Origin: Candidatus Staskawiczbacteria bacterium
GTDB taxonomy: Bacteria; Patescibacteriota; Minisyncoccia; Minisyncoccales; Staskawiczbacteraceae
Assembly (NCBI GenBank): GCA_963761865.1
Contig: CAVXIE010000002.1
Span: forward strand, 274,595 to 338,594
Reading direction: 5' to 3'
DNA: 64,000 nt
The number at the start of each line of letters is the position of its first letter. Within the stretch, counting starts at the first letter, position 1. Below, one piece after another: positions 3,934 through 60,132 of the stretch. The position numbers were made by a program, and so were the translations under genes. The notes beneath the pieces were generated by a model. It saw only the letters and a list, made by a program, of their open reading frames with translations, made no database searches and was not told where the DNA came from.

Positions 3934-5622
3934 TTGCGGCAAAAGTTTCTCAGTTTTTTTGAAAAGCATGGGCACATGATAATTCCCAGCGCTTCTTTAA
4001 TTCCGAAAGATTCCACTGTATTATTTGTAACCGCCGGAATGCAGCCGCTGGTGCCTTTTTTGTTAGGAGAGACGCATCCTAAAGGGGAAAGGCTGGTTAA
4101 TTATCAAAAATGTATTCGAACAAACGATATCGCGGAAGTTGGCGACGATACTCATTTAACTTTTTTTGAAATGCTTGGCAACTGGTCGCTGGGCGATTAC
4201 TGGAAAAATGAATCAATTAAATGGAGCTTTGAATTTTTAACCAAGGAACTAGAAATTCCAATTGAAAGACTGGCGGTGTCATGTTTTATTGGAGACGAAA
4301 ATGCGCCAAAAGATCGGGAATCAGCAGATATTTGGGAAAACCTGGGAATAAAAAAAGAGCGGATTGCGTTTTTGCCAAAGGAGGATAATTGGTGGGGTCC
4401 GGTTTCAGATTCGGGTCCGTGCGGTCCTGACACAGAAATTTTCTATTGGAAATCAAATGATATTCTGGCGCCGGTTGCATTTGATCCAACCGACAAAAAT
4501 TGGGTTGAAATTTGGAATAATGTTTTCATGCAATACGTAAAAACTCAGGATGGAACATATGCGTTGGCCGAGCAAAAAAATGTTGATACCGGCATGGGGT
4601 TTGAACGGATTGTTGCGATGTTGAACAATAAAAAAAGCGTGTATGAAATTGATGTGTTTGAACCGATAATGAACCTTTTTCCCGGCGAGTTTGATGAACG
4701 GAAAAAACGAATTATTGCTGACCATGCCAAAGCCTCAATGTTTTTAATCTCTGATGGAGTAATCCCCTCAAATAAAGATCAAGGATATGTGCTAAGACGA
4801 TTATTAAGAAGAATGATAGTTCATCTAAGAGGAGTGAGCGGAGTTGAATTATTGGAGCCAGTAAAAAAATGCATAGAAATTTATAAAGATCTGTATGAAT
4901 TAGATGAAAATAAAATTCTATCGGTGATAAAAGAAGAAGCGGATAAATTTGAAAAAACTCTTACATCCGGATTAAAAACCATAGAAAAAATTGATGTGAT
5001 TAATGGCAAAGAAGCTTTTTTGCTGTATGAAACGTATGGATTTCCGCTGGAAGTGCTGGAAGAAATGCGCGAGGTTGATAATCGGGAACAATTTTTTGAA
5101 GAATTAAAAAAACATCAGGAGCTTTCAAGAACCGCTTCGGCCGGAATGTTTAAGGGTGGATTGGCAGATCATGAACCAAAAACTATAAAATTACATACGG
5201 CTCATCATTTACTTTTGGCTGCTCTGCAAGAAATGTTTGGGAAGCAAGTAAAGCAAAAAGGAAGCAATATAAATTCTGAAAGACTAAGATTGGATTTTTC
5301 TTTTGACAGAAAATTAACCGATGAGGAAAAAAAGAAAATTGAAAATATGGTACAATCAAAGATAGACGAAGCCTTGGATGTGGTAAAAAAAGAAATGCCA
5401 AAAGAGGAAGCCGAAAAAATTGGCGCAGAAATGGAATTTGGTGTAAAATACGGTAATACGGTGTTCGTTTATTTTGTTGAAGATAAAAAGGGAAATGTTT
5501 TCAGCAAAGAATTTTGCGGAGGTCCGCATGTAAAAAATACCTCAGAGCTGGGTAAGTTTTATATTATAAAGGAAGAGGCCGTAAGTTCTGGGGTGCGAAG
5601 AATAAAAGCAGGGTTAAAGTGA
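3934..5622 (+). CDS. alaS: alanine--tRNA ligase, short form lacking the C-terminal (C-Ala) domain
   Basis: RQKFLSFFEKHGH, TNDIAEVGDDTHLTFFEMLGNWS, HTAHHLL, CGGPHV; TTG start at 3934 (an out-of-frame ATG lies at 3918, start uncertain). Confidence 0.85.
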   Translation: MRQKFLSFFEKHGHMIIPSASLIPKDSTVLFVTAGMQPLVPFLLGETHPKGERLVNYQKCIRTNDIAEVGDDTHLTFFEMLGNWSLGDYWKNESIKWSFEFLTKELEIPIERLAVSCFIGDENAPKDRESADIWENLGIKKERIAFLPKEDNWWGPVSDSGPCGPDTEIFYWKSNDILAPVAFDPTDKNWVEIWNNVFMQYVKTQDGTYALAEQKNVDTGMGFERIVAMLNNKKSVYEIDVFEPIMNLFPGEFDERKKRIIADHAKASMFLISDGVIPSNKDQGYVLRRLLRRMIVHLRGVSGVELLEPVKKCIEIYKDLYELDENKILSVIKEEADKFEKTLTSGLKTIEKIDVINGKEAFLLYETYGFPLEVLEEMREVDNREQFFEELKKHQELSRTASAGMFKGGLADHEPKTIKLHTAHHLLLAALQEMFGKQVKQKGSNINSERLRLDFSFDRKLTDEEKKKIENMVQSKIDEALDVVKKEMPKEEAEKIGAEMEFGVKYGNTVFVYFVEDKKGNVFSKEFCGGPHVKNTSELGKFYIIKEEAVSSGVRRIKAGLK

Positions 5623-5688
5623 TTAGCTTTTAGCTTATAGGTGTTAGCTTATAGTCAAAACTAAAAGCCAAAACCTAGAAGCTAAAAA
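5623..5688. repeat. TAG/CTA-word palindromic element (family C)
   Basis: ttttagcttataggtgttagcttatagt / actaaaagccaaaacctagaagctaaaa, about 24 of 28 complementary. Confidence 0.7.
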
Positions 5689-5698
5689 TTTAAAATCG

Positions 5699-6979
5699 AT
5701 GAAGAAAAAAATCTACGATATTTTACCGCCAAAGTTGGCAAAAAAAATAGAAAAAGATTCCAAGTTGGCAGGTGGTATCACGATAAGCAAACGTAAACCG
5801 CAGAAAGCAATTTCTCATAGAAAGACAGAAAGAAAGTTTCCGATTTGGCAGGTCGTTGCCGGCGTTTTGGTTATTATTATCGTAATTGGTGTTTATTTAT
5901 ATAACACTTTGCCGTATGTTAAAATACAGGTTTCGCCTAAATTCAGTGACGTAAATATTCAGGACAGTTTGACAGCTGATAAATCTTTTCAAAATGTAGA
6001 TTTAACTCAAAAAACTATTCCTGCACAATATATAGAAATTGAAAAAGACGGCGCCCAGGATTTTTTGGCAACCGGAAGCGCGACAAATGGCGGAAATGCT
6101 TCAGGGACTATCACTGTATATAACAAAGTAACTCCGGCAACTCCCATTATACTAAAAGCCGGTACTCACTTTTTATCAGATTCCGGTAAATATTTTAAAT
6201 CTGTAAGCAAAATTACAATTCCGCCAATGAAAGGCAAGACACCCGGTTCTGTAAGTGTTGCGGTTCAGGCAGAACAAACAGGGGCAGATTTTAATATCGG
6301 CGCATCTAATTTTTCTGTACCGGGACTTTCCGGTACTTCATATTATTATGGGGTTTGGGCAGTATCAACATCTGCAATGTCCGGAGGTTTTTCAGGAAAC
6401 GTAAAAAAGGTTACTGCTGATGACATACAAACTGCTCAGGGCATTTTGACTAAAAAACTATCAGACGATGCCATTTCTTCAATAAAAAGCTCTCTTACTC
6501 AAGACGAAATTTTGCTTGATGGCGCAGTGTCAACAAATATGTTAAGCGCGAATTCTGATACTGATGCAAACTCAATCAAAGACAGTTTTAACGAAAGCGT
6601 AAAAGTGCAAGCTTCGGCGCTGGTATTTAAAAAATCTGATTTACAACAATTTGTTAAAAACGATATTTCAGCTCAATTAACCGATGGGCAAAGTCTGCTG
6701 GAGAAAAGTTTGAGTGTAAATTACAGTGCAGACTCAGTTGATTTGCAGGGCGGAACCGAAAAAATAAATCTGCAAATTTTGGCAAAAAGTTATTATAATT
6801 TAGATCTGCAAAGCCTGGTCGGTTCATTAAGCGGAAAATCGTCTTCCGATATAAAAGCAATCATCAGTTCAAAATACAGTGGGGAAGTCGCCAGCACCAA
6901 AGTAAACTTCTGGCCATTATGGGTAAATTCCGCCCCAACAAATCAAAAGCGAATAAATATCAGCTTGAATTTACAATAA
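5699..6979 (+). CDS. hypothetical membrane-anchored protein
   Basis: 426-aa ORF, one N-terminal TM segment (IWQVVAGVLVIIIVIGVYLY), Ser/Thr-rich extracytoplasmic part. Confidence 0.6.
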   Translation: MKKKIYDILPPKLAKKIEKDSKLAGGITISKRKPQKAISHRKTERKFPIWQVVAGVLVIIIVIGVYLYNTLPYVKIQVSPKFSDVNIQDSLTADKSFQNVDLTQKTIPAQYIEIEKDGAQDFLATGSATNGGNASGTITVYNKVTPATPIILKAGTHFLSDSGKYFKSVSKITIPPMKGKTPGSVSVAVQAEQTGADFNIGASNFSVPGLSGTSYYYGVWAVSTSAMSGGFSGNVKKVTADDIQTAQGILTKKLSDDAISSIKSSLTQDEILLDGAVSTNMLSANSDTDANSIKDSFNESVKVQASALVFKKSDLQQFVKNDISAQLTDGQSLLEKSLSVNYSADSVDLQGGTEKINLQILAKSYYNLDLQSLVGSLSGKSSSDIKAIISSKYSGEVASTKVNFWPLWVNSAPTNQKRINISLNLQ

Positions 6980-7833: not shown

Positions 7834-7952
7834 CTAATTAACCTAATTATTCTAATTGACCTAATCAAATCCCAGTACACATGTCAAAATTGGAAATTAG
7901 GATTTAGGCATTATTTAGAATAATTAGAGCAATTAGTATAATTAGAATAATT
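7834..7952. repeat. CTAATTAG-word inverted-repeat element, ORF-less copy (family B)
   Basis: collinear with both arms of the element at 54629-55103; fills the infA stop to rpmJ start gap. Confidence 0.75.
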
Positions 7953-9068: not shown

Positions 9069-9668
9069 ATGGAAACAAAAGATACACAAGTCAAAGTAAA
9101 TACTCAGCCTGGCAAACCAACCGTTCCGGGAGGCGCACCGGCTCCTGATTTTGGTAAACGGAGAAAATCAAGAGGAACCGTTTCTGAATACAAAAAGTCT
9201 TTACAGGAAAAACAGACGCTTAAAAGGCTTTATGGACTTTCTGAAAGGCAATTTAAAAGATATGTATTGGAAACTCTTGATAAAATGCAAAGAGTTGAAA
9301 ACGTTTCCGATGAGCTCATAAAACGGCTTGAAAAAAGGCTTGATAATGTAGTTTTCAGATTGGGATTTGCAAAATCCAGAAGCCACGCAAGGCAATTGGT
9401 AAACCACGCATACTTTTTAATCAACGGAAAGCCGGTAAATATTCCGTCGTTTCAGGTTAAAAAAGGAGATGTTGTTGCAATAAAAGAAACCAAAAAGAAA
9501 AAGATGGTTTTTGAAAATTTGGTTGCAATATTAAAAAAGACAGAAGCCCCGGTTTGGTTGAAGTTAAATAAAGAAAAGTTTTCCGCTGAAACGGTTGGTG
9601 ATCCAAGTCTTGCAGAAGTAAATCCACCGGTAGAAATTTCATTGATATTTGAGTTTTATTCAAGGTAA
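9069..9668 (+). CDS. rpsD: 30S ribosomal protein S4
   Basis: LYGLSERQFKRY, RLDNVVFRLGFAKSRSHARQLVNHAYFLING. Confidence 0.95.
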   Translation: METKDTQVKVNTQPGKPTVPGGAPAPDFGKRRKSRGTVSEYKKSLQEKQTLKRLYGLSERQFKRYVLETLDKMQRVENVSDELIKRLEKRLDNVVFRLGFAKSRSHARQLVNHAYFLINGKPVNIPSFQVKKGDVVAIKETKKKKMVFENLVAILKKTEAPVWLKLNKEKFSAETVGDPSLAEVNPPVEISLIFEFYSR

Positions 9669-9695
9669 AATAATAAAGGTAAAAAAATTATTAAC

Positions 9696-9770
9696 TTGGT
9701 GTTCGATGTTAGGTGTTCGGTAATCGTCTTTCGACGTACCTAGCACCTAAAACCTAATACCTAAAAACTA
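9696..9770. repeat. TAG/CTA-word palindromic element (family C)
   Basis: ggtgttcgatgttaggtgttcggta ... tacctagcacctaaaacctaatacc, tip hairpin cgtc/gacg. Confidence 0.6.
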
Positions 9771-9773
9771 ATT

Positions 9774-10712
9774 ATGATTCCATTACCATTGCCCCCAAAA
9801 GTTATTGAAAAAGGCAAAAACAAGGCAATCTTTGAAGTCCAGGGGCTTTATCCCGGATACGGAGTAACTATTGGAAATGCACTAAGAAGAGTGTTACTTA
9901 CCTCGCTTGAAGGAGTTGCAGTAACCGAAGCAAAAATAAAAGGAGCAAGTCACGAATTTTCAACAATTCCCGGAATTTTGGAAGACGCGATAATGATTGT
10001 TTTAAATCTTAAGAATTTAAGGTTTAAAATACATGAAGGCACATCTCAAAAGGTTACATTAAAAGTTAAAGGAGAAAAAGAAGTCCACGGCTCAGATTTT
10101 AAACTATTTCCGCAGATTGCGCTCGCAAACCCTGAATTAAAAATTGCAACAATAACCGATGCCAAGACTGAACTGGAAATAGAAATTACCATTGAAAAAG
10201 GAATCGGATATGAACCAAGAGAACAAAGAAAAGTTGCCAAGCCGGAAATTGGCTCAATTCTATTTGATGCCATTTACACTCCAATTAAAAACGTAAGCTT
10301 TAATGTTGAAAATATGCGAGTGGGCGATAGGACAGACTTTGATAAATTATCTTTAGAAATAGAAACTGATGGGACAATCACCCCGGAAGAAGCATTTTAT
10401 CAGTCTTGTGAAATTTTAATAAGACATTTCAATATTATATTTGAAGGAAAAGTTCCTGAAAAAGCTTCAGAAAAAGAAGTGGAAAAAGCGGAAGTATCAG
10501 ATCCAAAAGAAGTCAGCGTTGAAGATTTAAAGCTTTCAGCGAGGACGCTTAATGCTTTAGTGGCAAATAAAATAAAAACAGTCGGCGATATTGTTAAAAA
10601 ATCAGAAAAGCAAATTGAAGATTTGGACGGAATGGGAGAAAAGGCAATGTCGGAAATAAAAAGGAAAGTAAAAAAATTAGGTTTAGAAATGAAAAATGAG
10701 GAAGCTAAATAA
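9774..10712 (+). CDS. rpoA: DNA-directed RNA polymerase subunit alpha
   Basis: YGVTIGNALRRVLLTSLEG, C-terminal LSARTLNAL helix-hairpin-helix region; operon position. Confidence 0.95.
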   Translation: MIPLPLPPKVIEKGKNKAIFEVQGLYPGYGVTIGNALRRVLLTSLEGVAVTEAKIKGASHEFSTIPGILEDAIMIVLNLKNLRFKIHEGTSQKVTLKVKGEKEVHGSDFKLFPQIALANPELKIATITDAKTELEIEITIEKGIGYEPREQRKVAKPEIGSILFDAIYTPIKNVSFNVENMRVGDRTDFDKLSLEIETDGTITPEEAFYQSCEILIRHFNIIFEGKVPEKASEKEVEKAEVSDPKEVSVEDLKLSARTLNALVANKIKTVGDIVKKSEKQIEDLDGMGEKAMSEIKRKVKKLGLEMKNEEAK

Positions 10713-17005: not shown

Positions 17006-18355
17006 TTAAGGAATAATCGGCTCAGAAACAAGCAGGTTATTTTGGGTTAACATATATAATTTTTTATCTTGTTGATTGAAAAAGATATTAGGTTTTTCAA
17101 TTGAAAAGCTTTTACCGCTTAATGATATTGTTGATGGCAAGGTGATTTTGTTTATTGCACCCCTGGTATCAAGCTCTGATATGATAATAGAGTCTCCTGA
17201 TGTGAAAACAATATAATCGCTATTAAGCCACAGACAATTACCAATTTGATTCATATTTGAGGCCAAGATGCCATTTTTTTGATCAACCGAAGTCGGATAA
17301 TAAAGCATAATGCCACTATCATTATAATAAATAAATTTTTGCCCGTCGGGCGAACCCTTTATATCAATAATGGGCTGGTAGAAAGGTTCAAATTTACCGG
17401 TTGCTTCATTTAAAATAAACAAAGAACCGCCTTCTTCTAAAAATGTTTTTCCACCGATAATTTTTAGCTGGTAAATATCATTCTTATTAACAGAAAATGC
17501 CAGTTCCGTTATTTTAGCGGTTGAATTGTCGCTATTGCTGAAATTATACAAAAACCCATCCTGGGCAAAATATATAATATTTTGGTTTTGTATTTGATAC
17601 GAGATAATATTTTTTATGATTGCTGAGGTTTGTAAAGTTGAATAAAGGTTTTTATTTTTTATATAAAATATTTCGTTTAAGTCTTGAGGGTTAAAGCGCA
17701 GTTCTTTGGCGCCAACCAGGGATGGTATTGCAGAAATTACAGGCTTTCCCGAAGATAAGTCCAAAAGATAATAAGTATTGTTAATAGCAAGTATCGCTTT
17801 ATTTGAATTATCAGACCACTGAGTGTTTACTATTGCTCCATTCTTGAACACCAGTAAAAAAGGTTGCGCTTGGTTGGTGTTTAAATCTATTATTTGAAAG
17901 TTAATGTTTTTAGCATTAAACTCTGCTGTTAGCAAGGAAGTGTTGTTTGGCGCAGTGGAAAAGTAGTCAACATTTTCCGCCAAAGGAGTAAAGTTTATAT
18001 TCTTTTTGAATAAAACAACATTCTCAAGTTTAGTAACGGTATTTTCTTTAACCGGAAGGTTTTTTTGGTAATCATAATAGCCATCTTTTTGGATTAAGAC
18101 GTTATGCTGTGTTGGCAAAAGATTTTGCACGAAAATAGAATTTGAGAATATGCCGGTGGTATTTTTTATCTTTGAATCAATAGTGATATAAGCTCCCGTA
18201 GGAACTTCTCTGACGTATATTCCGCCGGTTGCTATAACCCTTAGGTTGATAAGGTCAATTCTATATCCCAAAGAGTAAAGAATGATAAGCGGTACCACTA
18301 TTACAAACAGCAGAATACATACGGCAAGCATTATTAGTTTGGTTTTTAGTTTCAT
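17006..18355 (-). CDS. membrane-anchored PEGA-domain / beta-propeller-like protein
   Basis: N-terminal TM, VLIQKDGYYDYQKNLPVKENTVTKLENVVLF (PEGA-like), long repetitive beta-rich region. Confidence 0.6.
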   Translation of the reverse strand: MKLKTKLIMLAVCILLFVIVVPLIILYSLGYRIDLINLRVIATGGIYVREVPTGAYITIDSKIKNTTGIFSNSIFVQNLLPTQHNVLIQKDGYYDYQKNLPVKENTVTKLENVVLFKKNINFTPLAENVDYFSTAPNNTSLLTAEFNAKNINFQIIDLNTNQAQPFLLVFKNGAIVNTQWSDNSNKAILAINNTYYLLDLSSGKPVISAIPSLVGAKELRFNPQDLNEIFYIKNKNLYSTLQTSAIIKNIISYQIQNQNIIYFAQDGFLYNFSNSDNSTAKITELAFSVNKNDIYQLKIIGGKTFLEEGGSLFILNEATGKFEPFYQPIIDIKGSPDGQKFIYYNDSGIMLYYPTSVDQKNGILASNMNQIGNCLWLNSDYIVFTSGDSIIISELDTRGAINKITLPSTISLSGKSFSIEKPNIFFNQQDKKLYMLTQNNLLVSEPIIP

Positions 18356-18515: not shown

Positions 18516-19424
18516 ATGATTACGCTTTCTAATGGCCATAGTTTTGAATATATGGTCTCAAGCGGGGCGCTGGCATTTGACGGTAAGGGTTGGCCGTGGG
18601 AACGGCTCCTCGTTCGGCTTGGGCTGATAATGCCGGAGCTTTTTACGGTTGTTCTTAAAACATTGACCTTAAAACCACGCAAAGGAAATTTACGATGGTG
18701 GAAGCCCTGGGAATGTGTTCGTTTGATTCCCGGCGGTTCGGACAACAAAGTCGGCCTCACCAACAAGGGAAATGACTGGTGGTGCGATAAGGTTGCGCCA
18801 CACATCAATTTCAAAAAGTATTCTATCGTGGGGTCAATCTACGGCTCCAGAACCGAATTGGTTCAAATGGCAGAGACATTTAACAGATTTGAAGTAAAGT
18901 CCCTTGAGGTCAATGCTTCCTGCCCTAATACCGGTCACCCCATGGAAGATGTAGGGATTGTTGTCGAAGATGTTAAAGCAGTCAAAAACGTTTCAGGGCA
19001 TCCGATTATCGTAAAAGTGTCGGTCGCTCAAGATTATTTGGCTATTGCCCAGGGTTTGAAAGGAATTGCAGAAGCAATATCTTTAAACAGCGTTCCGTGG
19101 GAAATAGTTTTTCCGGGCAAAAGAAGTCCGCTTTGGCGGCTTGAAAAGAAAGTTGGCGGCGGCGGAGGCGGAGTTTCAGGCAAGCCGGCCCAAAAATATA
19201 ATTGGGCGGCGGTTGAAGCTCTTGCTAAGCAGGGAGGGCTTCAGGTTATCGCTCCAAGTATCATGGAATTTGAAGACATTGACCATGTCAGAGACTTGGG
19301 CGCCGGCGCCGTAAGTTTTGGCACAATACACCTTCCCAGCCATCCGGTTTGGCTAAAACCTTGGACGATTTTCACCAACCCCTGCAAACCAACCCGTTTT
19401 GTTATGAGGGAAATTTTCGGATAA
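18516..19424 (+). CDS. dihydroorotate dehydrogenase-like TIM-barrel flavoprotein
   Basis: LEVNASCPNTGHP, IIVKVS, GGGGGGVSGKP, GAGAVSFGT; visibly GC-richer than flanks. Confidence 0.6.
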   Translation: MITLSNGHSFEYMVSSGALAFDGKGWPWERLLVRLGLIMPELFTVVLKTLTLKPRKGNLRWWKPWECVRLIPGGSDNKVGLTNKGNDWWCDKVAPHINFKKYSIVGSIYGSRTELVQMAETFNRFEVKSLEVNASCPNTGHPMEDVGIVVEDVKAVKNVSGHPIIVKVSVAQDYLAIAQGLKGIAEAISLNSVPWEIVFPGKRSPLWRLEKKVGGGGGGVSGKPAQKYNWAAVEALAKQGGLQVIAPSIMEFEDIDHVRDLGAGAVSFGTIHLPSHPVWLKPWTIFTNPCKPTRFVMREIFG

Positions 19425-24771: not shown

Positions 24772-24928
24772 TTTTAGTGGTATGTCGTGTTAATTAGGCG
24801 AAGCGCCTCCGGCTGTCAATATAGTAATATAGGGTTTGTTGGTAAAATTGGTGAATGGGTTTCGCGGTGGCAAGGTAATTATATTCCGCCGCTCAAGAAA
24901 GAATTTAAAAAAATAATACTATAAACAT

Positions 24929-25183
24929 ATGTTCGACAACCTTAAAAAATTGCACGAGTTAAAGAAAATGCAGGATTCGTTTAAAAAAGAAAGGCTAACC
25001 GTTGAAAAAAAGGGAGTGTCGGTTACACTTAACGGAAATTTTGAAGTTGAAGACATCAAATTGAATTCGGAACTTGGTGTTGAAGATCAGCAAAATACGC
25101 TGAAAAGCGCGTTAAATGAAGCAAGGGAAAGTATTCAAAAAACCTTGGCGCAAAAAATGATGGCCTCTGGCATCGGGTTTTAA
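24929..25183 (+). CDS. ybaB: YbaB/EbfC family nucleoid-associated protein
   Basis: size 84 aa, LKKMQDSFKKERLTVEKKGVSVTLNGNFEVEDIKL pattern. Confidence 0.7.
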   Translation: MFDNLKKLHELKKMQDSFKKERLTVEKKGVSVTLNGNFEVEDIKLNSELGVEDQQNTLKSALNEARESIQKTLAQKMMASGIGF

Positions 25184-25193
25184 TTTTAAAAAT

Positions 25194-25946
25194 ATGTCAA
25201 AATATTATAATGCACATAGAGTAAGGGGATTATATGATCCAAAGTCATCGGAGCCATTTCGATTAAGTAGAAGTAGAATTGATTTATTCTTAAATTGTCC
25301 TCGTTGTTTTTATATTGATCGAAGACTTGGCACCGACCGGCCGCCGGGATTTCCATTTAGTTTAAACTCCGCAGTAGACAAACTTTTGAAAAAAGAATTT
25401 GATATACATAGAGCCGCGGGTACAGTCCATCCTTTAATGAAAGAGTACGGAATTGATGCAGTGCCTTTGGCGCACGAAAAAATGGATGAATGGCGTGATG
25501 CGCTCAGGCGAGGCATAACCTATTATGATAAGGCCACAAACTTTATGATAACCGGAGGAGTGGACGATGTATGGGTAAATCCAAAAGGAGAATTGATTAT
25601 TGTGGATTATAAAGCAACATCAAAAGATGACGAAGTAAGTTTGGATGCCGATTGGCAAATTGGATATAAACGTCAGATGGAAATATATCAATGGTTATTC
25701 AGAAAAAATGGGTTTAAAGTTTATAAAACGGGATATTTTGTATATTGCAATGGTGACAGCGACAAAGAGGCGTTTGATGCAAAATTGGAGTTTGATATAA
25801 AAGTTCTTCCATATACCGGCGATGATTCGTGGGTTGAAAAAACTATTGTTGATGCGTATAACTGCTTGAATGGCGATAAAATCCCGCCAGCAGGCGCTGA
25901 TTGCGATTATTGTCGTTACGTTAAGGCATTGGCAGCTTATACTTAA
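25194..25946 (+). CDS. PD-(D/E)xK nuclease superfamily protein, Cas4/RecB-like with four Cys
   Basis: N-terminal CPRC, DDVWV...IVDYKAT core, C-terminal CDYC. Confidence 0.65.
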   Translation: MSKYYNAHRVRGLYDPKSSEPFRLSRSRIDLFLNCPRCFYIDRRLGTDRPPGFPFSLNSAVDKLLKKEFDIHRAAGTVHPLMKEYGIDAVPLAHEKMDEWRDALRRGITYYDKATNFMITGGVDDVWVNPKGELIIVDYKATSKDDEVSLDADWQIGYKRQMEIYQWLFRKNGFKVYKTGYFVYCNGDSDKEAFDAKLEFDIKVLPYTGDDSWVEKTIVDAYNCLNGDKIPPAGADCDYCRYVKALAAYT

Positions 25947-26080: not shown

Positions 26081-26278
26081 ATGGTAAATATAATAGAAAA
26101 AACAAAGTATTTTTTTAAGGAAGTATATGTTGAATTGAAAAAAGTCAGCTGGCTTTCCCGCAATGAAGTAATTCGCTATACCGTTATTGTGTTGGCAGTT
26201 ACTATCGTGGTGGCAGCATTTTTGGGCGGACTTGATTATTTCTTTTCGTCAGCAGTACAATCATTTGTATTAAAATAA
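26081..26278 (+). CDS. secE: preprotein translocase subunit SecE
   Basis: 65 aa, one C-terminal TM, ELKKVSWLSRNEV, directly upstream of nusG. Confidence 0.85.
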   Translation: MVNIIEKTKYFFKEVYVELKKVSWLSRNEVIRYTVIVLAVTIVVAAFLGGLDYFFSSAVQSFVLK

Positions 26279-26280
26279 AA

Positions 26281-26353
26281 ACTAGCTTCTAGGTTATAGC
26301 TTTTAGGTTATAGTCAGCAACTAACACCTAACACCTAAAACCTAAAACCTAAT
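26281..26353. repeat. TAG/CTA-word palindromic element (family C) with 7-nt periodic right arm
   Basis: actagcttctaggttatagcttttaggttatagtc ... actaacacctaacacctaaaacctaaaacctaat. Confidence 0.65.
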
Positions 26354-26356
26354 CAA

Positions 26357-26906
26357 GTGCCAAAACAAGTTATAGAACAAGAAAAAAATTGGTACGTTAT
26401 TCATACCTATTCCGGATATGAGGACGCAGTAGCAAAAAACCTTAAGCAAAGGATTGAGAGTTTAGGTATGGAAGGAAAAATTTTCAACGTGATTGTGCCT
26501 AAAGAAAAGAAAATAAAAATTAAAAACGGAAAAAGAAAAACCGTTGAAGAAAAAATTTATCCCGGGCTATGTATTGGTGGAAATGGTGGTTGATGATGAA
26601 TCCTGGTATGTGGTCAGAAACACGCCAAGAGTTACCGGATTTTTAGGAGCGGGGACTACGCCAATTCCTGTTTCAAAGGCAGATATGGATGATTTGATGA
26701 AACGAATGAATGTCGGCGAACCTGAATTTCAAATTGACTTTGAGATTGGCGCGAATGTTAAAATTGTTGACGGGCCATTTAAGGGATTTGAAGGAAAGGT
26801 TTCAGAAATTGATCAGGCAAGAGGAAAAATTAAAGTGTTGGTCAATATGTTTGGCAGAGATACACCGGTAGAGTTAGATTCATTGCAAATTCAGCTTATT
26901 AAATAA
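26357..26906 (+). pseudogene. nusG: transcription antiterminator NusG, one frameshift in a G-run near 26565
   Basis: NWYVIHTYSGYE ... IYPG | YVLVEMVVDDESWYVVRNTPRVTGFLG ... KVLVNMFGRDTPVEL in two frames; GTG start. Confidence 0.9.
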
Positions 26907-32224: not shown

Positions 32225-32782
32225 ATGGCCACATACAAAGAATTTATAGATAGCGTAAAGCCGGAATTTGAAAAAGCGTTCAAATTTTTGGAGGGTGAAA
32301 TTGCAAAAATCAGAACATCCAGGTCTTCACCGGCGTTGGTTGAAGATATTGAGGTAGTCTGTTTTGATAATAAATTTTCGTTAAAGCAGTTGGCGGCTAT
32401 ATCTTGCCCTCAACTAAACCAAATTTTAATTCAGCCGTGGGATACTTCATATATTGAACCGATTGAAAAAGCTATTTTGAAATCAGGATTGGGAATGTCT
32501 TCTGCTGTTGATAAAAATACCATCAGATTGAGTTTGCCTTTATTGACAGAAGAATACAGACACAGTTTGGTAAAGGTGTTAAACGAAAAATCTGAGCAAT
32601 GCAGACAAACAATTAGACATTGGAGAGAAGATGCTTGGAACAAAATTCAGACAGCTCAAAAAGACAAGAAACTTTCTGAAGACGATAAATTTAAGGGAAG
32701 AGACGGATTACAGAAGTTAATTGATGAATATTCAGAGAAAATAAAGGCACTGGTTGAGAAAAAGAGCGGGGAAGTGATTTAG
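32225..32782 (+). CDS. frr: ribosome recycling factor
   Basis: IAKIRTSRSSPALVEDI, LTEEYRHSLVK, DDKFKG..LQKLIDEY. Confidence 0.9.
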   Translation: MATYKEFIDSVKPEFEKAFKFLEGEIAKIRTSRSSPALVEDIEVVCFDNKFSLKQLAAISCPQLNQILIQPWDTSYIEPIEKAILKSGLGMSSAVDKNTIRLSLPLLTEEYRHSLVKVLNEKSEQCRQTIRHWREDAWNKIQTAQKDKKLSEDDKFKGRDGLQKLIDEYSEKIKALVEKKSGEVI

Positions 32783-32786
32783 AATT

Positions 32787-32908
32787 TCTAATTAATCTAA
32801 TTATACTAATTGATCTAAATAAATCCTAAATCCCAATGTTCAAAAGTTTAGGAGTTAGCTTTTAGGATTTGATTAGAGTAATTAGAAATTAGAATAATTA
32901 GAATAATT
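32787..32908. repeat. CTAATTAG-word inverted-repeat element, ORF-less copy (family B)
   Basis: collinear with both arms of 54629-55103; loop begins cccaATGTTCAAAAG. Confidence 0.75.
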
Positions 32909-37342: not shown

Positions 37343-38760
37343 TGGATTTGACTGAATTAACAATTAAACAAGCTCACGAAGGACTTAAAAAAGGAGATTT
37401 TACTTCTGTTGATTTAACAAAAGCTTATTTGGAAAAAATCAAGAACGCGGATAAAGAAATAAATGCATTCTTATCCGTTGATGAAGATTTTGCGATACAT
37501 CAGGCAGAAGAGGCTGACAAAAAAATTGCCCAAGCCAAGGGAGATTTTGGAATTTTAATGGGAATTCCTTGTGCTATCAAAGACGCCATTATGGTTGAGG
37601 GACAAAAATGCACTGCGGCTTCAAAAATTTTAGAAAACTATGTTGCTCCATATAGCGCGACTGTTGTTCAAAAACTATGGCATCAAGGATCGGTCATTCT
37701 AGGAAAAACAAATTTGGATGAGTTTGCAATGGGCGGTTCCGGAGAGAATTCCGCATTTGGAGCAACAAAAAATCCGCACGATAAAACTCGGGTTGCCGGA
37801 GGAAGTTCATCGGGTTCGGCTGCCTCTGTGGCTGCGAATATGGCCTGCTTTTCATTGGGCTCTGATACTGGTGGCTCAATCAGGTTGCCGGCATCTTTTT
37901 GCGGGGTTGTAGGGCTAAAACCGACCTATGGGGCTGTTTCACGATATGGTTTGATTGCCTTTGCTTCGTCGTTGGATCAAATTGGTCCGATTACTAAAAC
38001 AGTTGAGGACGCAGGTATTGTGTTCGATGCAATTAGCGGAAAAGATAAAATGGATGCGACCAGTGTTGACTATAAGCTAGAAGCTAAAAGTTATAAGCTA
38101 GACGGCTTACGGATTGGTGTTCCGAAGGAATATTTTGTAAAAGGAATTGACCCTGAGGTTGAGAAAATCATCCGCGGCGCAATTAAAAAAGCAGAAGATG
38201 CCGGAGCTAAAATTGTTGAAATAAGTTTGCCGAGCGTTGAGTTTGCTTTGGCCTGTTATTACATTATTGCGCCGTCTGAAGCTTCGGCAAACCTGGCGCG
38301 ATTTGATGGAATACGATATGGTTTGTCAGAGCCTGCTGAAAATTTATTGGATGTATATTTAAAATCAAAAGGGTATGGGTTCGGCGCTGAAGTAAAACGC
38401 AGGATTATGCTTGGGACTTACGCCTTGTCGTCGGGATATTATGATGCCTATTACAAAAAAGCGCAGCAAGTTAGAGAATTTATTAAAGAAGATTTTGCTA
38501 AAGCGTTTGCAAAAGTAGATTTGATTTTTTGTCCGGTTTCGCCGGTTCCGGCAATTAAAATAGGGGAGCGAACCGGAGACCCGCTTTCAATGTATTTGAT
38601 GGATATTTATACGGTGTCAGTCAACTTGGCCGGTTTGCCGGCAATTTCGATACCGGCCGGAAAAAGCGGAGACTTGCCGGTTGGTTTGCAAATAATTGGA
38701 AACCATTTTGAGGAAGCTAAGATTTTGTCGATTGCTCAAGAAATAGAAAAAATGCTATAA
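37342..38760 (+). CDS. gatA: Asp/Glu-tRNA amidotransferase subunit A
   Basis: amidase signature [30 protein letters not shown]. Confidence 0.95.
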
Positions 38761-38772
38761 TGGCATTAGTTA

Positions 38773-38834
38773 AAAGTTATCAAGTTATAAAGTTATCAAG
38801 TACAATAAACTTTGTAACTTTAAAACTTTAAACT
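38773..38834. repeat. AAGTTAT-word imperfect palindrome (family E)
   Basis: aaagttatcaagttataaagttatcaagt ... aaactttgtaactttaaaactttaaact. Confidence 0.55.
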
Positions 38835-38837
38835 GCG

Positions 38838-39389
38838 ATGGCAACAGTTACTTGGGATCAAGTTTATCAATTACTTGGAATAAAAGATTTTATTTACTTC
38901 ATTGATTCTCCCAGCATACAAGATGCGCTTTTTCCTATAAAATTAGTTTTTATTGCTTTTACGTTATTTTTTCTTTGCGCAGTAATTTATTTTTATTATA
39001 ACAGCACTTATCTTAAATATAAATTTTTACAGGACACTTCAGAATTCCTTTCGTGGCGCGCCTATGGTTTGGGCGACGTAAGTAAACGATGGGAAGCTAT
39101 AATGAAGAAGACCCAGTCGGGGTTAGAGAGCGAATATAAGTTGGCGATTATTGATGCTGATGATTTTTTGTATCAAACTCTTGAGGAAAAAGGTTTTAAT
39201 GGAGAAAATTTTGAGGAATTACTGAATGATGCTAAAAAGAGAATAAGTATTGATGCGGATACAATTATGGAAGACCATAGAATAAGAAACACTATAGTAT
39301 ATGAACCGGATTATAAATTAGATTCAAAACTGGCTGAAAAAATGTTATCCGAATATGAAACCGTTATAAAAAACACCGCAATATCATAA
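38838..39389 (+). CDS. hypothetical membrane-anchored protein
   Basis: 183-aa ORF, one TM (LVFIAFTLFFLCAVIYFYY). Confidence 0.55.
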   Translation: MATVTWDQVYQLLGIKDFIYFIDSPSIQDALFPIKLVFIAFTLFFLCAVIYFYYNSTYLKYKFLQDTSEFLSWRAYGLGDVSKRWEAIMKKTQSGLESEYKLAIIDADDFLYQTLEEKGFNGENFEELLNDAKKRISIDADTIMEDHRIRNTIVYEPDYKLDSKLAEKMLSEYETVIKNTAIS

Positions 39390-41750: not shown

Positions 41751-41886
41751 CCATCTGAAAATGGCTATTGCTGAAGCTATTTATTCTAATTTAAACACCT
41801 CAAGCGGCGGAAATGAGGTGTTTATTTCGTTTGCGGAAATTGATTTTTGGCGTTTTCGGTGATAAACTTGGCTTAGATAAATATTT

Positions 41887-53628: not shown

Positions 53629-54633
53629 ATGAAAATTGCTTTCTTCGAAATAGAAAATTGGGAGACAGAATATCTAAAAAACCAGTATAAAAATGATGAA
53701 GCCGTTTTTTTCCCTGAAAAACTTTCTTTGGAAAATATCGGTCTGGTTAAAGATTGTGAAATAATTTCTGTGTTTACGGACTCGCGCGTAGATGAAAAAA
53801 TAATTTCCCAACTGCCAAATGTAAAAATGATTGCAACGCGCTCAACGGGTTTTGATCATATAGATTTAGTTCAGGCAAACAAACAAAAAATCACGGTGTG
53901 CAATGTACCAATCTACGGTGAAAATACCGTTGCCGAACATACTTTTGCATTATTGCTCGATTTATCCAGAAATATTTATAAATCAATTCAAAGTGTCAAA
54001 GAAAAAGGTTTTTCGGTGCACGGGTTGCGAGGATTTGATTTAAAGGGTAAGACATTGGGAATCATCGGTACCGGTCACATTGGAAAGCACATCGCCAGAA
54101 TTGCAAAAGGTTTTGAAATGAATGTTATTGCTTTTGATCCGTTTCCGGATAAAAAAGCGGCAAAACAGCTTGATTTCAAATATGTTTCAATGGAAGAATT
54201 GTTGAAAAATGCCGATGTGATTACTTTGCATGTTCCCGATAACGAAAAAACTCACCATTTGATAAACTCAGGGAATATAAACTTAATTAAAAAAGGTGCG
54301 TATTTAATCAATACTTCGCGTGGTGGCATTATTGAAACTGCGACTTTGGTCAGCGCGCTGGATTGCGGAATTCTAGCCGGCGCAGGACTGGATGTGTTGG
54401 AGGGCGAATGCGATATAAAAGAAGAAAGCCAGCTTTTATCAAAAGAACTGCCGGCAACCTGTGATATACGAACAATGTTACAAGATCATATGTTAATGGA
54501 ACGTGATAATGTGATAATCACTCCGCATAACGCATTTAACTCAAAAGAAGCCCTGGAAAGAATTTTGGAAACCACGGTAGAAAACATTAAGGCGTTCGAA
54601 AAAAATAAACCAATCAACACTGTAAATTTCTAA
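53629..54633 (+). CDS. D-isomer specific 2-hydroxyacid dehydrogenase (D-lactate dehydrogenase-like)
   Basis: GIIGTGHIGKHIA NAD motif, NTSRGGII, ITPHNAF. Confidence 0.85.
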   Translation: MKIAFFEIENWETEYLKNQYKNDEAVFFPEKLSLENIGLVKDCEIISVFTDSRVDEKIISQLPNVKMIATRSTGFDHIDLVQANKQKITVCNVPIYGENTVAEHTFALLLDLSRNIYKSIQSVKEKGFSVHGLRGFDLKGKTLGIIGTGHIGKHIARIAKGFEMNVIAFDPFPDKKAAKQLDFKYVSMEELLKNADVITLHVPDNEKTHHLINSGNINLIKKGAYLINTSRGGIIETATLVSALDCGILAGAGLDVLEGECDIKEESQLLSKELPATCDIRTMLQDHMLMERDNVIITPHNAFNSKEALERILETTVENIKAFEKNKPINTVNF

Positions 54634-55103
54634 TTAACCTAATTGTTCTAATTATTCTAATCAAATCCCAATGTCTAATGACAAAAAAGAAAATAAATAT
54701 GATTTAGAAGAGCGAACAGCCAAATTTGGAGAAAATATCATAAATTTTGCAAAAAGTATTCCAGTAAATTCGGTTACCCAAAGAATTATTCCGCAGTTGG
54801 TGGCATCTGGAACATCGATGGGTTCAAACTACTGTGAGGCAGATGACGCAGAATCCGGCAGAGACTTCAAGCATAAGATTGGAATATGCAAAAAAGAGGG
54901 CAGAGAAACAAAATATTGGTTAAGGATGGTTGCGACAGCAGCTCCAGAGTTGAAAAATGAAGCAAAGATTTTTTGGCAGGAAGCAAAAGAATTACACTTA
55001 ATATTTAATGCTATCTATAAAAAAGTCGGTAAAAAATAATTTAGGGTTTAGTAATTAGTCATTATTTAGGTTAATTAGTATAATTAGATTAATTAGAATA
55101 ATT
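54629..55103 (+). mobile_element. CTAATTAG-word inverted-repeat cassette carrying a four-helix-bundle ORF (family B, full-length copy)
   Basis: left arm 54629-54670, ORF 54671-55039, right arm 55040-55103; ORF-less relatives at 7834-7952 and 32787-32908. Confidence 0.6.
54671..55039 (+). CDS. four-helix-bundle protein (23S rRNA intervening-sequence protein family)
   Basis: PQLVASGTSMGSNYCEADDAESGRDFKHKIGICKKEGRETKYWLRMV matches the family core recalled as QLxRSxxSIxANxxEg...S..DF..K..I..KE..ET.YWL. Confidence 0.85.
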   Translation: MSNDKKENKYDLEERTAKFGENIINFAKSIPVNSVTQRIIPQLVASGTSMGSNYCEADDAESGRDFKHKIGICKKEGRETKYWLRMVATAAPELKNEAKIFWQEAKELHLIFNAIYKKVGKK

Positions 55104-55107
55104 CGTT

Positions 55108-56028
55108 ATGATATACGATTTAATAATTATTGGCGCGGGGCCGGCAGGAGTTTCTGCCGGAATATATGCGGCTCGCCAGCAGCTCAAAATTTTGATTATT
55201 TCAAAAGATATCGGTGGCCAGGTTGCCAAAAAAGCGGTTGATATTGAGAATTATCCGGGATTTGAAAAAATTTCAGGTCCGGATTTGGTTGAGCTTTACC
55301 AAAAGCAAATTAAAGTCAATAATTTGGAAGTTGTTTTTGACGAAGTAACCGATATTAATAAAACTGATAAGTTTTCAACAAAAACAAGTTCCGGTAAAGA
55401 ATATCAGGCAATTTCAGTGGTTATTGCTTCCGGCGCAAAATCAAAAATGCTGAACGTTGAAGGCGAAGAAGCATTTGCCGGAAAGGGAGTAAGCTATTGT
55501 TCATTGTGCGACGGACCGGTATTCAAAGATAAAACCGTGGCGGTTATCGGCGGAGGCAATAATGGGTTTGAATCGGCGGTGTTTCTTTCCAATTACGTCA
55601 AAAAGATTTATATTTTAGAATTTAGCGACAAAATTGGTGCTGATAAAGAAAATCAGGATTTGGTTGCCAAACACAAAAATATAGAAGTTATCACAAATGC
55701 CAAAGTGTTAAAAATTGAGGGAAAAATATTTGTAAATTCAATTACATATCAGGATTTAAAAACAAACAAAGAAATAAAGCTTGATATTAACGGAGTTTTT
55801 GTTGAAATTGGATATCTGCCGGCAACTTCGTTTGCTAAAAATCTGGTTGATTTAAACGAAAAAAATGAAATTATGTTTGACGCCAAAACCCTAGAAACAA
55901 AGACTCAGGGATTATTTTCAGCAGGGGATTGCAACGTTTCAAAATACAAGCAAATCATTATGGCATCCGGCGACGGCGCAAAAGCAGCTCTGAGTGCATA
56001 TGAATATATCAAACGAAACAAGAACTAA
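55108..56028 (+). CDS. trxB: thioredoxin-disulfide reductase
   Basis: IIIGAGPAGVSAGIYAAR, CSLCDG redox pair, VIGGGNNGFE, GDC. Confidence 0.9.
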   Translation: MIYDLIIIGAGPAGVSAGIYAARQQLKILIISKDIGGQVAKKAVDIENYPGFEKISGPDLVELYQKQIKVNNLEVVFDEVTDINKTDKFSTKTSSGKEYQAISVVIASGAKSKMLNVEGEEAFAGKGVSYCSLCDGPVFKDKTVAVIGGGNNGFESAVFLSNYVKKIYILEFSDKIGADKENQDLVAKHKNIEVITNAKVLKIEGKIFVNSITYQDLKTNKEIKLDINGVFVEIGYLPATSFAKNLVDLNEKNEIMFDAKTLETKTQGLFSAGDCNVSKYKQIIMASGDGAKAALSAYEYIKRNKN

Positions 56029-59033: not shown

Positions 59034-59990
59034 ATGCAGATGAATAAAAATTCGATTCTTATTATTGTGGCAATCCTGGCGGTAGTTGTTACCGGTGTGT
59101 TGATTTATTTTAATTCTAACCCTGCTACAGATAATGTGCTTTCATTTTTGCAATTTAATTCTAAATCGGCAGATAGTGCAATTGCCAAAAAAGCGATAGA
59201 TTATATAAATCAAAACGGATTGGCCGGTCAAGGACAAACAGTTACTTTGGTAAGCGTTTCAGAACAAAGCGGTCTAGTTAAAATGAGCGTGAAAGTTGGA
59301 ACCAACAGTTTTGACAGTTACGTGACAAAAGACGGAAGCCTTTTGTTCCCGACATCAATTCCATTAACCGGGACAACCGCACAGGCAAATGCCAATTCGC
59401 AAACTCCTCCAGCTGGTTCGCAAACTGTAGACATCAGCAAAGTAAATATTACAGGAGAGCCATACACTGGTAACGTAAATGCTCCGGTAGTTATGGCATT
59501 TTGGTCTGATTACCAGTGTCCGTTCTGCAAAAAAGTTGAACAAGAAATTATTCCTCAACTAGTTAAAGATTACGTTGATACCGGAAAGTTAAAGATCGTT
59601 TTTAAAGATTATCCTTTCTTGGGTGTGGACTCACAGACGCTTGCTAAATTCAGCCGAGCCGTTTGGCAAGTAGCTCCGGCAAAGTTTTATGCTTGGAATA
59701 AAAATATGTATGACAACCAGGGCACAGAAAATACCGGATGGGCAACTCAGAGTGAAATTATGAAATTAACTACCAGTGTGCTTGGGGCTGGCGACGCGGC
59801 AAAAGTATTGGCGCTTGAACAGAGCAATTCAGATCAATATCAAAAATTATTGGATGCGGACAAAGCAGAAGGCGTAAGTTTTGGAATTCAAGGAACTCCT
59901 GGTACAATTATTGGCAAAAAGCTTATTTCAGGAGCTGATGTATATTCTTCATTCAGCGGCGCAATAGACGCAGTGCTTAACGGTAAATAA
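59034..59990 (+). CDS. DsbA-family thiol:disulfide oxidoreductase, membrane anchored
   Basis: N-terminal TM, WSDYQCPFCKK. Confidence 0.8.
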   Translation: MQMNKNSILIIVAILAVVVTGVLIYFNSNPATDNVLSFLQFNSKSADSAIAKKAIDYINQNGLAGQGQTVTLVSVSEQSGLVKMSVKVGTNSFDSYVTKDGSLLFPTSIPLTGTTAQANANSQTPPAGSQTVDISKVNITGEPYTGNVNAPVVMAFWSDYQCPFCKKVEQEIIPQLVKDYVDTGKLKIVFKDYPFLGVDSQTLAKFSRAVWQVAPAKFYAWNKNMYDNQGTENTGWATQSEIMKLTTSVLGAGDAAKVLALEQSNSDQYQKLLDADKAEGVSFGIQGTPGTIIGKKLISGADVYSSFSGAIDAVLNGK

Positions 59991-60132
59991 GAAATCGTAA
60001 ATCTAAAATTACAAATCACAAATAAATCCAAATAACCAAAATCCAAATAACCAAAACACGTTTTGAATTTTAAAAAATTAGAATTTAGATATTGTTTGTA
60101 ATTTGGTGCTTGTAATTTGGGATTTCACAATT

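Follow-up and report, generated by a model that had tools for sequence, protein, structure and literature searches.

How does a gene for a four-helix-bundle protein come to be wrapped in an inverted repeat and placed in the gap between two protein genes? The question is raised by a cassette at positions 54629-55103 of a 64,000-nt stretch of DNA from a Candidatus Staskawiczbacteria bacterium; the whole stretch is called the window below, and coordinates refer to it unless another record is named. The comparison of this cassette with its homologues showed that a unit of gene plus hairpin, together with gene-less hairpins, recurs across bacteria, in hundreds of genomes that range from those of candidate phyla to those of cultured Nostoc. 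With somewhat better than even confidence, we read the unit as a horizontally spreading, indel-polymorphic hairpin cassette of the intervening sequence (IVS) type, whose arms are inverted arrays of clade-specific 7-9-nt words and whose apex carries a promoter-less four-helix-bundle gene. The parts of the window copy and the two host genes that it separates are as follows.

54629-54670, + strand, left arm: outer units tCTAATTAA cCTAATTGT tCTAATTAT tCTAATCAA, then the inner word ATCCCA
54671-55039, + strand, four-helix-bundle gene, 122 aa (PF05635 / TIGR02436, pI 9.2)
55040-55103, + strand, right arm: inner words tttagggtttag and ttagtcatta, then outer units TTTAGGTTAATTAG TATAATTAG ATTAATTAG AATAATT
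53629-54633, + strand, upstream host gene, 2-hydroxyacid dehydrogenase, 334 aa, co-directional with the cassette
55108-56028, + strand, downstream host gene, thioredoxin-reductase-like (trxB-like)

The cassette, 475 bp in total, lies exactly between one gene's stop and the start of the gene that follows it in the same direction. The TAA of the dehydrogenase gene (54631-54633) lies within the first word of the left arm, and the cassette terminus thus supplies the last codons and the stop of that gene. The right terminus (...AGAATAATT) stops 4 nt short of the ATG of the trxB-like gene (55108), before which no Shine-Dalgarno motif was found. Overall, the arms span 51 nt with 75% complementarity and include a perfect 13-bp pairing, ctaattaacctaa / ttaggttaattag, of 54630-54642 with 55066-55078. 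In the predicted RNA fold, an interrupted 30-bp stem closes over the entire open reading frame (ORF) in the minimum-free-energy and the centroid structures alike, and an inverted-repeat stem enclosing an ORF is a trait that the cassette shares with IVSs. The opening codons of the ORF, ATGTCTAATGAC, are themselves part of the inner arm and are able to pair with TTAGTCATTA at 55055-55064. These results agree with the original prediction, which had placed the cassette between the dehydrogenase stop and the trxB ATG with the TAA inside the first repeat word, the 122-aa ORF at 54671-55039, and 13 perfect base pairs in the arms. No promoter belonging to the ORF itself was identified in the cassette. 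One TAGTCA-17-TATAAT match in the right arm was considered as a promoter and rejected, since the regional count was not above that of shuffles and the TATAAT-bearing unit was equally frequent in both arms.

The assignment of the ORF to the four-helix-bundle / 23S rRNA IVS family, also made in the original prediction, was borne out by profile scores of 40.9 bits against PF05635 (curated cut-off 33.8) and 64.2 bits against TIGR02436 (curated cut-off 24). A ColabFold/AF2 model built with 24 homologues (pLDDT 92.5, four helices) agreed with it. The best PDB matches of the model in Foldseek were 2RLD (BT_0352, 'S23 ribosomal protein family'; TM 0.76-0.86), an entry with five chains, and then 2GSC (Xcc0516), and the window protein is accordingly modelled as an up-down four-helix bundle like these two; by phmmer, it matched 2RLD with an E of 1.1e-11. 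The Avd protein of diversity-generating retroelements (DGRs) was a more distant structural match (4DWL and 8UB7, a chain in a solved DGR ribonucleoprotein; TM approximately 0.6-0.7). The conserved motif of the family has been given as GxxRxxxSxxxNxxE (PMC3936711). In the clade of the window protein, the S49-N53-E56 part of this motif is present and the arginine position is an alanine (QLVASGTSMGSNYCEA), and Q42, N53, E56, E79, and L84 are invariant over all aligned subfamilies. PF05635 was the sole domain of the window protein in the profile scans, with no recognisable transposase or nuclease domain. A defence or phage origin was dismissed, since the protein had no PADLOC or PHROG match and only two weak phage matches.

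Two gene-less copies in the window have their outer and inner arms in common with the ORF-bearing cassette.

7834-7952, + strand, ORF-less copy filling the infA-rpmJ gap: begins right after the infA TAG and ends 3 nt before the rpmJ ATG
32787-32908, + strand, ORF-less copy from the stop of the upstream ORF (32225-32782) to the ATG of the next gene

The ORF upstream of the second copy is presumably ribosome-recycling-factor-like, as judged by eye and not by a profile scan. Both copies had been predicted at these positions, and both fold well (z scores of -3.7 and -5.7, respectively). Their loops had also been said to begin at the same cccaATGT junction; the second copy indeed keeps it ('aaatcccaATGt'), but the inner junction of the first copy reads cccaGTACACATGT.

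Each of the three elements has the word CTAATTNNN arrayed in one arm and its complement NNNAATTAG in the other. When up to 2 mismatches were allowed, TCTAATTAWYCTAATT had 17 matches in the window against 0.77 expected, a number that no shuffle reached, and 16 of the 17 fell within the three elements; for CTAATTNNNCTAAT, 19 matches were found against 3.3 expected. The resemblance of the copies thus exceeds that of shuffled AT-rich sequence, which had been proposed as a check on them. The arms had originally been described as built from the self-complementary word CTAATTAG, an 8-mer with zero exact occurrences in the window, and this description was abandoned. Instead, the left arms repeat a 9-nt unit, CTAATT[AG][ATC][CT], or in other loci a 7-nt unit, CTAATTT, with the complement in the right arms.

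The protein search was saturated, with 7,996 significant matches among 8,000 scored candidates; the best 120 of those were examined for identity and were 73-87% identical to the window protein, several being labelled Staskawiczbacteria, Berkelbacteria, or Patescibacteria. When searched exhaustively at E <= 1e-3, the family comprised at least 6,023 clusters (50% identity). Among the cluster representatives, many were 150-175 aa long with the match beginning at residue 40-65, and their ORFs were possibly over-extended upstream through the left arm by gene callers. For the comparison of loci, 80 homologous loci were taken from species-representative genomes, which cover many phyla of the candidate phyla radiation (CPR) as well as Omnitrophota, Phycisphaerae, Verrucomicrobiota, and Bacteroidales. 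The flanking genes were different in every locus examined, and the cassette proteins of unrelated phyla were 64-81% identical. The plan of the flanks was nearly universal: (CTAATTNNN)n, ...AAATCCCA-ATG, ORF, stop, ...TGGGATTT..., (NNNAATTAG)n. CTAAT arms surrounded 78 of the 82 main-clade homologues, in hosts with a GC content of 0.29-0.58, so that the further copies that had been expected do exist, in many phyla, and a limited vocabulary (CTAATTATT, CTAATTGAC, CTAATTAAC, and CTAATTT) was common to different phyla.

The arm clusters were ordered left-then-right 94 times and in reverse 9 times. Loop lengths were bimodal, with 28 gene-less elements of 26-131 nt and 64 ORF-bearing elements of 361-552 nt. 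The gene-less copies begin 2-20 nt past a stop codon and finish approximately 10-28 nt before the next start; the gene upstream of the four-helix-bundle ORF was co-directional with it in 75 of 78 cases, at a median stop-to-ATG distance of 49 nt. None of the 80 loci contained rRNA when fragments of E. coli 23S and 16S rRNA were used as blastn queries, and in the window Rfam found just four tRNAs and no rRNA. Neither the window cassette nor any of the 80 homologous loci thus has the location of an IVS inside a 23S or 16S rRNA helix. The cassette is therefore not an rRNA IVS, though it is built like one, and the earlier suggestion that the IVS-type architecture occurs outside rRNA is upheld. In L040, L053, L058, L073, and L081, a second left arm was seen directly after the ORF stop; in the four of these whose right side was examined (L040, L053, L073, and L081), it closes a complete gene-less hairpin, a nested or tandem arrangement in which alternative pairings are possible.

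The synonymous sites were saturated among the homologues (mean proportion of synonymous differences, pS, 0.83), while the proportion of nonsynonymous differences, pN, was low (0.22), and the four-helix-bundle gene is therefore functional; the nonsynonymous divergence, dN, of the window ORF from its nearest relatives was 0.11-0.15. The CTAATT core was invariant over the 78 loci despite the saturated synonymous sites, and the core is therefore no leftover of recent common descent. These substitution patterns show purifying selection on the protein as well as on the core word.

Presence and absence were then compared at orthologous sites. Three related genomes (L162, L166, and L167) carry a type IV secretion system-like operon, TrbL-hypothetical-PrgI-TraC-like-VirB4-like, beside yidC/rnpA/dnaA, with cassettes in different gaps.

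PrgI to TraC-like gap: L162, CTAATT cassette; L166, decayed cassette of another family; L167, empty ('TAAaATG')
TraC-like to VirB4-like gap: L162, gene-less CTAATT element; L166, other-family cassette; L167, ORF-bearing CTAATT cassette

The same orthologous gaps are thus filled, empty, or occupied by a gene-less element; the original prediction had named a lack of insertion polymorphism in related genomes as counting against it. At the TraC-like to VirB4-like gap, the termini of the L162 and L167 elements are near-identical. The right terminus frequently reads ...AATTAGAATAATTT(C/T)AAAAC immediately 5' of whichever gene's ATG follows, and the element therefore supplies the leader of the downstream gene; an upstream stop codon inside the left terminus was found in Nostoc sp. 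C052 as in the window copy. In this one operon, each of the three genomes had two or three cassettes whose four-helix-bundle genes belong to different subfamilies; a single cassette among them all is split by a frameshift. The original prediction had gone further and proposed an autonomous and non-autonomous pair akin to MITEs (miniature transposable elements with inverted repeats). The likeness holds in that terminal inverted repeats are common to the long and the short copies, that ORF-bearing and ORF-less copies occupy one orthologous gap, and that insertion is polymorphic at orthologous sites; however, the long copy encodes neither a transposase nor a recognisable nuclease domain, and its autonomy is hypothetical.

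The same architecture was found in cultured cyanobacteria. On plasmids of Dolichospermum flos-aquae and Nostoc flagelliforme, genes annotated as 'four helix bundle protein' lie within perfect inverted heptamer arrays, (TAATTCG)4-5 / (CGAATTA)4, with arms of 33-35 nt that are 100% complementary. The N. flagelliforme plasmid pNFSY06 (L171) has three elements in one 50-kb stretch (17524-17980, 18757-18961, and 24775-25200 of that record). One is a cassette with GCAATTC arms; at a distance of 800 nt from it lies a short hairpin built from its word, with a perfect stem of 34 bp (z score -10.5). The third is another cassette, which has GTAATTC arms, and the proteins of the two cassettes are 73% identical. 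Their words differ by a single base, for which every unit in both arms shows the compensating change, and the two paralogues make up a ready-made system for word specificity in a cultured strain. Between the same flanking genes, a cassette was present in N. flagelliforme and on pC052_A of Nostoc sp. C052 and was absent from five further Nostoc plasmid records among those listed (H18-H23), including pNPUN02 of N. punctiforme PCC 73102; two of the five, pNPUN02 among them, were aligned. On pANACY.01 of Anabaena cylindrica (L170), a four-helix-bundle cassette with (AAAAGTA)n arms separates cas2 from cas1 at 1492-1839 and is oriented opposite to both. A four-helix-bundle gene between cmr3 and cmr2 has been reported earlier (PMC3936711). 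The reported 'CRISPR association' of the family may instead reflect inserted cassettes, and in annotation a gene described as 'associated' with a CRISPR locus or a secretion operon may be nothing more than such an insertion.

A word-agnostic hairpin detector run on the loci found hairpins of other words with loops of 400-580 nt, and the ORFs in these loops were PF05635 proteins of other subfamilies. The arm words of these cassettes were as follows.

GAATCTT/CAAGATAC: L002 and L036
AAAGTCCAT: L020
GAGTAGN: L058
ATCAATT: L036
AATTTTT: L003

The ATCAATT word was replicated in the independent genomes L036 and L167, whose proteins are 80% identical; the GAATCTT family was seen again in L166 as a decayed copy, and the AATTCG[CT] word occurred with its subfamily in both Nostoc and Dolichospermum. 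L036 has three word families in one genome, each flanking its own protein subfamily. Each protein subfamily thus goes with its own word, even within a single genome, and the conserved words are probably recognised by the cassette's own protein. At L010 (2170-2764), the same architecture, with arms ATACGAAC x4 / GTTCGTAT x4, encloses a GxxExxY / PD-(D/E)XK_3 protein (PF13366, TIGR04256), a cargo unrelated to the four-helix bundle.

We inferred how such an insertion is most likely tolerated. The cassette would be transcribed by read-through from the host operon, and its arms would fold on the transcript, re-joining the upstream stop with the downstream start; by analogy with rRNA IVSs, the folded arms may also offer a site for a double-strand RNase. 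Either the re-joining or the cleavage would make the insertion tolerable in Shine-Dalgarno-poor, tightly coupled operons. The idea of fold-away coupling was drawn from the presence of a Shine-Dalgarno-like motif upstream of just 9 of the 60 window genes (crude scan) and from the empty PrgI to TraC-like junction, TAAaATG. The protein, which is basic and has pentameric ring proteins as homologues, would bind the words arrayed in its own cassette as well as those in the gene-less copies. A broader proposal, which we hold to be doubtful, is that proteins of the four-helix-bundle type (IVS / S23p / Avd-like) bind arrays of short words in a sequence-specific manner and are dedicated partners in the maintenance or mobility of a vast class of periodic-word hairpins, whether these are rRNA IVSs, the intercistronic elements of CPR bacteria, or the heptamers of cyanobacteria and Xanthomonas. 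If this were true, it would be a gene-repeat partnership like that of the REP-associated tyrosine transposases (RAYTs) and their REPIN repeats, built on a non-enzymatic ring protein that possibly brings in a polymerase or nuclease of the host, as Avd does with its reverse transcriptase (REP denotes repetitive extragenic palindromes).

Several observations weigh against reading the unit as a spreading hairpin cassette. The arm mismatches, counted on alignments with DNA-only scoring, comprised 108 G.U-compatible, 133 A.C, and 259 transversion pairs in the outer arms, with no G.U excess on the sense strand, and 26 G.U, 27 A.C, and 131 transversion pairs in the inner arms, with no RNA-type bias. 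Arms of the same element matched barely better than arms of different elements (outer arms, 0.60 vs 0.54, p 6e-4; inner arms, 9.6 vs 8.6, p 0.002), suggesting that stem-level selection is weak in the CPR copies. From the lack of a G.U excess together with this weak matching, the arms behave as inverted arrays of conserved words and not as an RNA helix with compensatory changes, and selection on an RNA helix was rejected as the signal. Since the mismatches are strand-symmetric and the 7- and 9-nt spacings are mixed, the words could be recognised on DNA or RNA. Moreover, no transposase adjoined any cassette examined, and no target-site duplication was visible at the compared filled and empty junctions, where the flanks were AT-rich and diverged and gave no clean high-identity empty site. 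With no transposase, nuclease, or target-site duplication found, the case for mobility comes from the presence/absence patterns only. The Nostoc plasmids counted as lacking the cassette hold approximately 200 nt of unrelated DNA at the site, so that no clean empty site is available there, and 4 of the 82 main-clade homologues had other words, in hosts with a GC content of 0.54-0.61.

The CTAATT family is one among many, and hairpins of other words bear on the same point. In the window, those in the gaps 5622-5699, 9668-9774, 26278-26357, and 38760-38838 had significant folds (z -3.1 to -5.1), and a fifth candidate, 59990-60103, had a weak fold (z -2.4). Their words are periodic at 7-9 nt (TTAGCTT/AAGCTAA, TAGGTGT/ACCTAAN, TAGGTTA/ACCTAAN, and AAGTTAT/AACTTTA), each of the five begins at a stop codon and ends just ahead of the next start, and no cognate gene for them was visible within the window. 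Such hairpins, with no cognate gene in view, were flagged in approximately 8% of gaps (23 of 284, the window and the infA loci pooled), and hairpins stand at conserved orthologous positions in L084 with L095 and in L091 with L099. Of the 20 closest metagenomic relatives at the infA-rpmJ gap (L082-L101), none had CTAATT there; 7 gaps were empty (4-27 nt), approximately 10 held a periodic-word hairpin of another word (ACGAATKT, ACAATTG, AGAAAAT, ATGCTTC, ACGCAGAT, and others), and the rest held other insertions. A narrow four-helix-bundle hidden Markov model gave no match on these infA metagenome loci. An occupancy of approximately 50% at this gap versus approximately 8% overall suggests a hot spot or a selected position. 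Since the gap holds other-word hairpins or nothing in the relatives, and since some hairpins are orthologously conserved, a host function of at least the gene-less hairpins is possible.

The significant folds, the infA-rpmJ occupancy, and the orthologous conservation would all be expected if periodic-word hairpins were normal, largely vertical operon elements of CPR bacteria that serve the host as punctuation (in processing, stability, attenuation, or coupling), with the bundle gene as a passenger or a dedicated regulator; the inverted heptamer pairs of Xanthomonas, 83-90% position-conserved between species (PMC4692102), would fit as well. We nevertheless think this account unlikely, because several orthologous gaps are empty (1-27 nt), different word families occupy the same gap of related genomes, a decayed, frameshifted copy exists, and the CPR arms show neither G.U bias nor a compensatory signal; the occurrence of the cassette in unrelated phyla at the protein identities given above also speaks against it. 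A DNA-level repeat served by an enzyme in trans, in the manner of REP/RAYT or of a MITE, would explain why mismatches are strand-symmetric with no RNA signature, why the word is conserved and not the pairing, why gene-less copies are common, and why two unrelated cargo families share one architecture. The arms would then be terminal inverted arrays or single-stranded DNA hairpins, and the bundle or GxxExxY gene mere cargo. This seems to us quite improbable, for the words track the protein subfamily and not the host, one genome having two or three word families around their own subfamilies; neither a transposase beside a cassette nor a target-site duplication was found among those examined, and the mixed 7-/9-nt spacing in one array would poorly fit rigid recognition of double-stranded DNA.

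Two further explanations carry little weight. Slippage in AT-rich intergenic DNA could produce functionless repeats whose resemblance in three copies is a low-complexity coincidence; the window is AT-rich (GC approximately 0.37), and the heptamer number varies among Coxiella strains, suggesting slippage there (PMC4990558). The 17 matches against 0.77 expected, the invariance of the CTAATT core at 78 loci with saturated synonymous sites, and the specific association of CTAATT with one protein clade make such a by-product very improbable. The gene might also be an Avd remnant or accessory gene of a DGR, since PF05635 proteins resemble Avd (PMC10053308) and the model aligns with the Avd structures as described. 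DGRs are, in addition, common in CPR bacteria. We found this origin hardly credible, because the 8-kb neighbourhood holds no reverse transcriptase, the ORF matches neither the Avd equivalog NF033474 nor PF22296, and the neighbours differ at every locus examined. The reading of the unit as a horizontally spreading hairpin cassette is the one that we retain.

Among the closest known systems are the 23S rRNA IVSs with an S23p / PF05635 ORF (Leptospira, Coxiella, Xanthomonas, and Brucella), with which the cassette has in common the protein family, an ORF that tops a long stem of inverted repeats, the short tandem repeats in the arm beside the start codon, and a sporadic distribution with suspected horizontal transfer. 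In the IVS of Coxiella, three to four tandem GACAGAT heptamers lie upstream of the S23p ORF, and the IVS is cut by RNase III (PMC4990558). In contrast to these IVSs, the window cassette lies between protein cistrons, has longer arms of conserved words, and has gene-less copies dispersed in the same genome; excision by RNase III, without religation, is an established feature of rRNA IVSs and is hypothetical for the window cassette. REP/REPIN elements with RAYT, Correia elements, and other MITEs resemble it in being short, dispersed extragenic hairpins, in having a gene flanked by the inverted repeat, in gene-specific families, and in co-transcription with operons. Unlike in REP/RAYT, the gene between the repeats specifies a helical bundle of 14 kDa and not an HUH (Y1) transposase or any recognisable enzyme, and unlike in REP elements and MITEs, the arms are periodic word arrays and not a unique palindrome, with no target-site duplication found.

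Short tandem heptamer repeats of cyanobacteria are named the STRR type. Like the heptamer arrays of cyanobacteria and Xanthomonas, the arms described here are intergenic tandem 7-nt units, often in hairpin-capable convergent pairs and conserved in position. Rehm et al. (2015) described the Xanthomonas arrays in convergent pairs and single arrays in Nostoc, with no gene linked to them (PMC4692102); in our loci and in the Nostoc and Dolichospermum plasmids, by contrast, the arrays form the arms of bundle-gene cassettes and of the gene-less elements derived from them. Avd, a basic pentamer, is part of a ribonucleoprotein (PDB 4DWL, 8UB7). The window protein is modelled with a related four-helix-bundle fold, but near its gene there is no reverse transcriptase and there are no template/variable repeats, and the ORF scores below the Avd models. 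The protein family is thus known, and the cassette resembles the rRNA IVSs in build and REP/RAYT and MITEs in logic, with no transposase. In the full-text literature searched, which left most subscription journals outside its scope, no published description of the periodic-arm cassette or of its gene-less derivatives was found.

To our knowledge, the four-helix-bundle family has no known function outside DGRs, and we know of no settled function or origin for the rRNA intervening sequences, a question open since approximately 1990. The cassette provides a defined genetic context for this orphan family, and the rRNA IVSs, the gene-less hairpins of CPR bacteria, and the heptamer arrays of cyanobacteria and Xanthomonas may share one architecture. 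The prediction that each protein binds its own word is testable in cultured strains.

Elsewhere in the window, one isolated half-match to the arm word, a weak one (GCTATTTATTCTAATT), was noted at 41776-41791, approximately 100 nt upstream of a tRNA gene and with no partner arm. The 8-kb surroundings of the cassette contain NTP_transferase, 2-Hacid_dh, Pyr_redox_2, and enolase genes as neighbours. In the window as a whole, 58 of the 60 long ORFs lie on the + strand, and the GC skew is positive all along.

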